From assembly GCA_964016885.1 (NCBI GenBank), contig OZ024754.1, forward strand, positions 12,710,001-12,774,000: DNA of 64,000 nucleotides. The letters run 5' to 3'. This document shows positions 49,197 to 49,841 of the stretch, in pieces. Made by a program: the position numbers and the translations under genes. The DNA comes from Eledone cirrhosa (lineage: Eukaryota). How positions within the stretch are numbered: the stretch's first letter is position 1; every line of letters starts with the position of its first letter. A model generated the notes under the pieces. It was not told the DNA's origin. It ran no database searches and saw nothing but the letters and a program-made list of their open reading frames with translations.

Positions 49197-49275
49197 CGAA
49201 GGAAATGTGGTAAGGAACCAGGTGGACCATAACGCACCAAAGTACTCAATACTTGAGGTAGTAGAGTGGGTAATA

Positions 49276-49387
49276 GGAACAAGTAAGACCCCGACGGCTG
49301 AGCTCAAGCTGTTTCGATGGCTAATTCTGGACTAAATGAAAATTTATCCTGGTATTTAAATAGCCGAGCTTCTCAAGGGATAATTCC
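49276..49387 (-). ncRNA. Type I hammerhead, U3-A8 core variant
   Basis: reverse: ggaattatccc-TTGAGAA-gctcggcta..tagccatc-GAAA-cagct..agccg-TC-gggg. Confidence 0.7.
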
Positions 49388-49704
49388 ATATATGGTCAAA
49401 GTGATTGTCACAAGGATTGGTCACAAGTTAGTAGTAATTCTGTGATGGCAAATTAGTGGGGGAAGGGGTAGCTAAACCTGCCAGTAGGAGAAAAAGGGGC
49501 GGGGGTGGAGTAGACCCATTCATGCATTGGTGGTGCCGGCTATAGCTGGGCATGAGGTCAAAGAAGATACTAGGGAGGGGGAGGAAGTCGAAACGGTAAG
49601 TAGAACACTGGCAGGTTTAGCTACCCCTTCCCCCACTAATTTGCCATCACAGAATTACTACTAACTTGTGACCAATCCTTGTGACAATCACTTTGACCAT
49701 ATAT

Positions 49705-49816
49705 GGAATTACCCCTTGAGAAGCTCGGCTATTTAAATACCAGGATAAATTTTCATTTAGTCCAGAATTAGCCGTCGAAACAGCTTGAGCTCAGCCGTCG
49801 GGGTCTTACTGGTTCC
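49705..49816 (+). ncRNA. Type I hammerhead, U3-A8 core variant, GUC site at 49797-49799
   Basis: ggaattacccc-TTGAGAA-gctcggcta..tagccgtc-GAAA-cagct-tgagctc-agccg-TC-gggg-tcttac-tggttcc. Confidence 0.78.
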
Positions 49817-49841
49817 TATATATACATATATATATATATAC

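Follow-up and report, generated by a model that had tools for sequence, protein, structure and literature searches.

A two-armed, 5′-truncated insertion of an abundant repeat occupies positions 49194-49818 of the 64,000-nt stretch of Eledone cirrhosa DNA that we analysed (the window). In our reading, to which we assign a probability of about 0.8, it was placed at (TA)n by the enzymes of a Penelope-like element (PLE), and it carries a hammerhead ribozyme motif of the known U3-A8 kind, for which dimer cleavage is predicted in the parent element and which is likely inert at this locus. The window is rich in microsatellites, holds dispersed repeats throughout and reads as non-coding animal DNA. 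An earlier note on this DNA had recognised the hammerhead and the inverted repeat around it, but had overlooked that the repeat has a tail and two fixed ends and sits in a Penelope-type setting.

The inverted repeat had been given as 212 bp with a hammerhead on both arms, and both points held: it measures 213 bp (49273-49485 against 49607-49819; 98.6% identity, arms 121 nt apart), with three mismatches (49281, 49318 and 49380) and a complete motif on each arm. It is a portion of the bigger insertion, which lies within (TA)n, and sequencing reads were present in all 30 bins of 49190-49830. The 'spacer' between the arms is covered by reads and by contigs at depths like those of the adjoining arm, and therefore belongs to the repeat family, as sequence further upstream that is found in one arm only. 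Since a tail extends past the left arm and the spacer is family sequence, the locus is a long minus-strand arm joined head to head with a short plus-strand arm (Table 1). Five nucleotides of complementarity at the junction fit the joining of two cDNAs; one contig from data set X4, which aligns up to 49611 and diverges beyond, stands behind this, and we regard it as suggestive only. Further copies of the tail lie at 30947-31027 and, diverged, at 33424-33492. The tail stretches AAGUAUUGAGUA and UAUGGUCCACCUGG are retained even in the diverged copy and are, from their sequence, candidates for recognition by the enzyme.

Table 1. Features of the insertion, of its hammerhead motifs and of related copies in the window (predicted elements are marked as such).
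Feature	Positions	Strand	Details or basis
Long arm, 5′-truncated element copy ending in (TA)n	49194..49611	-	Sequence comparison; read cover
Tail, ~80 nt, long arm only	49194..49273	-	Two small hairpins predicted
Hammerhead motif, long (left) arm	49276..49387	-	U3 49376, A8 49371; predicted cut after C49293
'Spacer', 121 nt, family sequence further upstream	49486..49606	-	In one arm only
Head-to-head junction, possible 5-nt microhomology	49607..49611	.	Complementary to 49481-49485
Short arm, inverted 5′-truncated copy, tail-less	49607..49818	+	Stops 2 nt past stem I at (TA)n
Type I hammerhead motif, short (right) arm	49705..49816	+	
Stem I of the right-arm motif		+	49705-49715 with 49800-49804 and 49811-49816; 6-nt bulge
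Core UUGAGAA	49716..49722	+	U3-U4-G5-A6-G7-A8-A9
Long stem II, 54 nt	49723..49776	+	Closed by G10.1-C11.1
GAAA, stem III and GUC site	49777..49799	+	GAAA 49777-49780; stem III 49780-49798, 6 bp; C17 = 49799
Second two-armed family insertion	30821..31029	.	Truncated inside stem II, so no 5′ core
Diverged two-armed insertion	33348..33497	.	Short arm minus, tail-only arm plus
Diverged, decayed lone short arm	33140..33190	+	

The motif on each arm matches the type I hammerhead in its sequence, with three stems round the core and the open ends in stem I, and both arms hold the U3-A8 Watson-Crick pair, GAAA and GUC. The earlier proposal of a hammerhead with a compensated U3-A8 core was thus borne out, the core elements UUGAGAA, GAAA and GUC being complete on each arm and U3-A8 having been published before (PMC3088659; PMC4209133). 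The loop of stem III contains the palindrome GAGCUC (49787-49792). The left-arm hammerhead has two further damaging changes, in stems I and II. Stem III is perfect in the copy at 30905, as had been claimed; at 49705-49816, however, it is imperfect, A49782 facing C49796 on both arms. The 30905 copy lacks the UUGAGAA half, and nowhere in the window do the core and a flawless stem III occur in the same copy.

To recognise such motifs we used a hammerhead descriptor that was written after the motif had been seen and was tuned on it; it matched at 49716 in the real window and in one of 200 local dinucleotide shuffles. This descriptor picked up neither the left arm nor the window's other hammerheads, and a first, stricter one gave no match in the real window. 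A 22-nt pattern for stem III had five matches where 0.01 were expected, and a scan of metagenomes for the stem III motif returned none. Rfam reported no hammerhead among its 15 matches at E up to 10 over 49090-49830, a miss to be expected from the long stem II and the variant core, and one that agrees with the earlier statement that standard models overlook this core. Over the whole window, the 150 Rfam matches listed out of 291 were microsatellite-driven miRNA and sRNA matches, none at the gathering score.

Three two-armed loci of the family were found in the window, each with an inverted 5′-truncated copy and a tail at one end. All four short ends terminate where stem I ends, all three long ends where the tail ends, and the seven outer ends lie against (TA)n. 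The fixed outer end sites are thus two, ~80 nt apart, while the inner break points differ from copy to copy; the predicted cut site is ~99 nt from the long end and 19 nt from the short end. A one-ended tail, an inverted 5′-truncated copy, a (TA)n target and a hammerhead near the 3′ end are features of the PLE type. The first three form the published signature of PLE insertion (PMC8557442), and for an Anolis PLE two start sites of reverse transcription were described in vitro as defining the tail (PMC11167929). By analogy, a PLE endonuclease would have cut (TA)n, and both DNA ends would have primed reverse transcription on the element RNA, from two fixed start sites, one where the tail ends and one where stem I ends. 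The two cDNAs would then have halted early and been joined head to head.

The parent element may have been a PLE with coding capacity or a non-coding retrozyme mobilised by such a PLE, and we consider the odds about even. The retrozyme, with a monomer longer than ~418 nt, would be cut into units, possibly circles, and the locus would be an insertion of less than one unit, so that this alternative refines the PLE explanation. It draws on the 313 nt on the upstream side of the cut site, which gave no coding match, on read depth that is roughly flat over 49344-49607 with no steady fall, and on the proposal that animal retrozymes derive from PLEs (10.64898/2026.07.22.740005). A coding PLE likewise has a non-coding 3′ region, though, one frame at the upstream end is open for 60 codons, and no tandem copy or direct repeat is present at the locus, within 418 nt. 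Metazoan non-LTR retrozymes, as described in PMC7229834 and 10.64898/2026.07.22.740005, share with the present family a non-coding sequence, a type I hammerhead and a bulged stem I, and those of the axolotl share the palindromic loop III, which is described there together with dimer cleavage. They are defined, however, by tandem monomers of ~220-390 nt and by circular RNAs, whereas our locus is known from DNA and has no tandem unit. A Pfam scan of 127 of the 182 candidate frames in the window (the other 55 are mostly tandem or overlapping repeat frames) detected no fragment of a PLE reverse transcriptase or GIY-YIG endonuclease and gave only three weak, sub-cutoff DUF matches; the copy is truncated.

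Public reads showed how abundant the family is. In run X16, 24,275 of 12.5 million reads align on 641 bases of the locus, and in X1 15,678 contigs do so; three of the runs are RAD libraries, and their read counts are not copy numbers. Reads running from the long end into loose (TA)n numbered 9,171 (X16) and 10,241 (X17). Summed contig depth on the tail exceeded that on the 5′ core ~22-fold in X1 and ~74-fold in X4, and in 15 of the 69 joint rows listed the tail side is connected with the short arm, the point of connection differing between rows. Reads end sharply at 49326, 49382, 49707, 49751 and 49766, but these positions were rejected as boundaries of the element since they sit on AATT sites (five of the six positions listed); we take the ends to be RAD restriction ends, and read counts are for this reason no measure of copy number. 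Loose ends at 49206, 49279, 49769 and 49805 mark abundant diverged subfamilies that share the tail and the GAGCUC loop and differ in the strands of stems I and III and in the position of the long end.

Variants around the core were called in four runs over 49698-49747 with a listing threshold of 2%, and reads below 80% identity were not counted, so that C3-G8 relatives of greater divergence may exist. C stands at position 3 in 437 of 1,194 reads (201/490, 122/381 and 114/323; 32-41% per run) and in 35 contigs of X1 (30% of depth), while no variant of A8 reached the threshold in any of the four runs. About a third of the reads that cover the core therefore lack the 3-8 pair, and the expectation that copies would conserve UUGAGAA was in part contradicted, at U3, with no corresponding change at A8. 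Position 7 varies (G>U in 86 and G>C in 28 of 1,206 reads), and at U4, G5, A6, A9 and G10.1 no variant reached 2%; variation at 7 beside these unvaried positions is, at the sequence level, the pattern expected of a hammerhead. G at 49782, which makes stem III perfect, is carried by ~89% of reads (4,727/5,303 in X16 and 4,283/4,807 in X17). C49724A (459/1,206) and U49734C (554/1,201) add or strengthen pairs of stem II. Editing of the A-to-I type, either producing C3 or repairing A8, found no support, the variants of at least 2% in 49698-49747 not being dominated by A>G or T>C; A>G is listed at 49707 and 49737 only.

To get an idea of how these sequences would fold, we compared the copy in the window with its family variants. 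Taken alone, the right arm is predicted to pair its core with the stem III region, which leaves the hammerhead 6.1 kcal/mol above the minimum, and the predicted share of the hammerhead in the ensemble is 5e-5 for the right arm and 3e-6 for the left. Since the arms point outward, transcription through the locus would reach the antisense arm first, and the read-through RNA is predicted to fold into one long hairpin (-431 and -443 kcal/mol). By these models the hammerhead copy at 49194-49818 is likely inert, and the earlier judgement of a probably active ribozyme finds no support at the locus: the arms are predicted to misfold alone, and the read-through RNA to be locked in a hairpin.

The proposal of the earlier note, that the family is active and its members cut as monomers, here by means of a stable 6-bp stem III, is possible but in our view doubtful. 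The majority allele G49782 completes stem III, and in combination with A49724 it makes the monomer hammerhead the predicted minimum, with pair probabilities of 0.54-0.85 in stem III; on this model some family members may cut alone, and fungal PLE hammerheads with a long helix III are reported to cut as monomers (PMC4209133). Neither allele is present in either arm, though, the linkage between them is not readable from the variant tables, and with G49782 alone the monomer hammerhead makes up 0.5% of the predicted ensemble. The GAGCUC palindrome has moreover been retained, and C3-A8 occurs in roughly one read in three. Covariation, which had been suggested as a check, was uninformative for stem III: one pair is compensated among the six copies in the window, which is no better than shuffles (256/500).

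Dimer cutting, as in our preferred reading, fits the palindrome. GAGCUC is intact in five of the six window copies, for which the chance is ~3% for one loop, and it contributes ~7 kcal/mol to the predicted duplex. Unconstrained cofolding of two right arms gave the topology of a double hammerhead at -58.1 kcal/mol, against -52.2 for two monomers, and for a mixed C3/U3 dimer the prediction is -70.9 kcal/mol, with -58.9 for the two monomers, all dimer energies being standard-state values that favour any duplex. The same topology was obtained for three of four variant homodimers, the exception being C3 with G49782 and C49724. In the parent, two RNA copies would thus pair through stem III and GAGCUC into a double hammerhead, in which each core would cut its partner after GUC. 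Palindromic loop III with dimer cleavage is the described mode of animal PLE hammerheads (PMC4209133). The palindrome and the cofolding favour the double hammerhead, and one variant combination folds alone; monomer competence as the mode of the family, which the earlier note had proposed, is not supported. Activity in vitro has been cited for covarying 3-8 pairs (PMC3088659), and in one mutational scan of a type III hammerhead activity was rescued by the G3-C8 swap only (PMC9901934), which makes the activity of U3-A8 context-dependent.

So high a frequency of C3-A8 at a single site speaks for a sub-lineage and against scattered decay. A natural CUGANAA hammerhead, from Schistosoma, was reported to be inactive (PMC8490949), the only report that our search of the literature on CUGANAA, UUGANAA and C3-A8 hammerheads returned, as far as its accessible text goes. 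The C3-A8 copies may be read in three ways. Dead copies may spread because cleavage is dispensable, as it was for insertion in vitro (PMC11167929); they may be cut in trans, with a core facing the partner's GUC in the modelled double hammerhead; or a few loci may have been amplified as DNA arrays and over-counted in the reads. The C3 copies may also use a shifted register, CUGA-GA without position 7. That they form a large 'cheater' sub-lineage, unable to cut yet multiplying by retrotransposition, either cut in trans by U3-A8 copies through GAGCUC or with cutting dispensable in vivo, is a tentative idea that we think rather unlikely. If true, such a sub-lineage would amount to a natural experiment, on the scale of a genome, on the function of Penelope hammerheads, and would show a catalytic pair midway through a compensatory change. 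Of all the results, the C3-A8 sub-lineage most deserves to be followed: with intact and mismatched cores side by side, the family provides material to examine whether lineages with dead cores keep transposing, and also allows asking whether dead cores are cut in trans.

It is improbable that the hammerhead is a vestige across the whole family, no longer cutting and retained because the sequence serves the PLE protein as a structure or simply because descent is recent. The C3-A8 reads and the inactive CUGANAA hammerhead would agree with this, as would the finding that PLE insertion in vitro was indifferent to ribozyme mutants (PMC11167929). Positions 4, 5, 6, 8, 9 and G10.1 are, however, free of listed variants while position 7 varies, the common variants strengthen stem II, and U3-A8 recurs in a second, unrelated motif of the window (51962, minus). 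A MITE-like foldback DNA element with terminal inverted repeats and an incidental hammerhead is very improbable: it would explain long, near-perfect inverted arms with no coding capacity, but is largely refuted by the asymmetry of the arms, which are unequal, point outward and share one polarity gradient in depth, with inner breaks that differ per copy and outer ends fixed at two different sites.

We compared the family with known systems. U3-A8 had been found in nature earlier (PMC3088659), and the several natural examples described there have the same compensated 3-8 pair, the accessible part of that source describing no mixed U3-A8/C3-A8 family. PLE repeats of Schistosoma contain U3-A8 hammerheads, with ~1,300 matches (PMC4209133). 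Those of the Cercyon PLEs of Schistosoma mansoni, in the same source, resemble ours in being type I, with U3-A8, a palindromic helix III region and G10.1-C11.1, and in occurring as many scattered single copies and as opposite-strand motif pairs 100-700 bp apart. The Cercyon motifs are minimal: helix III is very short or missing and helix II has 7-8 bp. The present hammerhead differs in its 6-bp stem III with a 7-nt loop, 54-nt stem II and bulged 5+6-bp stem I. Plant and fungal PLEs offer precedents both for long loop II inserts and for a longer helix III, as far as the available texts describe them. From its sequence, the core is not new, and the less usual part is the scaffold, a 54-nt stem II domain together with a 6-bp stem III. 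The family is one more U3-A8 hammerhead in a Penelope-type repeat, a described class; no description of the family itself was found in the hammerhead literature on octopus and cephalopods.

The inverted 5′-truncated copy, one-ended tail, (TA)n and 3′-near hammerhead of the insertion are like those of the Penelope/Poseidon, Neptune and Hydra pLTR insertions (PMC8557442), although the tail of ~80 nt compares with 30-40 bp in the PLE papers, and the endonuclease-bearing PLEs of that study differ from the locus, where no ORF was found. The hammerheads listed in the available part of its File S2 all start with CUGA, unlike the UUGA here, and three loop III motifs of the family, searched on either strand, had zero matches in the supplement as available. 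We rejected identity with Hydra-1_Obim, for which the hammerhead listed differs in sequence and has a CUGA core. According to the same study (PMC8557442), it is unclear what hammerheads do in endonuclease-bearing PLEs.

Other motifs and repeats were observed in the window. A minimal hammerhead unrelated to the family, with a UUGAGAA core (51962), lies on the minus strand at 51915-51975, near (TA)n, with a 4-bp stem II, a palindromic ACGUACGU stem III and an imperfect stem I. The 3′ part of another minimal hammerhead (49095-49160, minus; 6-bp stem II, GAAACGUACGUA) is directly across (TA)n from the long end of the insertion and has no recognisable 5′ core. Hammerhead-like motifs with canonical CUGAUGA cores and an AU-palindromic stem III were seen at 16571(-), 16739(+), 50075(-), 50245(+), 57599(-), 61530(-) and 30697(-), and the loci 16533-16777 and 50058-50262 are themselves inverted repeats. 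Two opposed copies, 11113-11860 and 54401-55122, are 99% identical and have an open frame of ~200 codons with no Pfam match; we take them to be the 3′ end of a LINE. The related fragments 52936-53763 (minus) and 14968-15552, with 77% identity and no Pfam match, presumably show similarity to the C-terminal region of an RTE-type LINE protein. Tandem arrays occupy 1-2660 (units of ~118 bp) and 20390-21870 (units of ~48 bp that stem from a dispersed repeat), and 37300-41200 holds a long array built on a trinucleotide.
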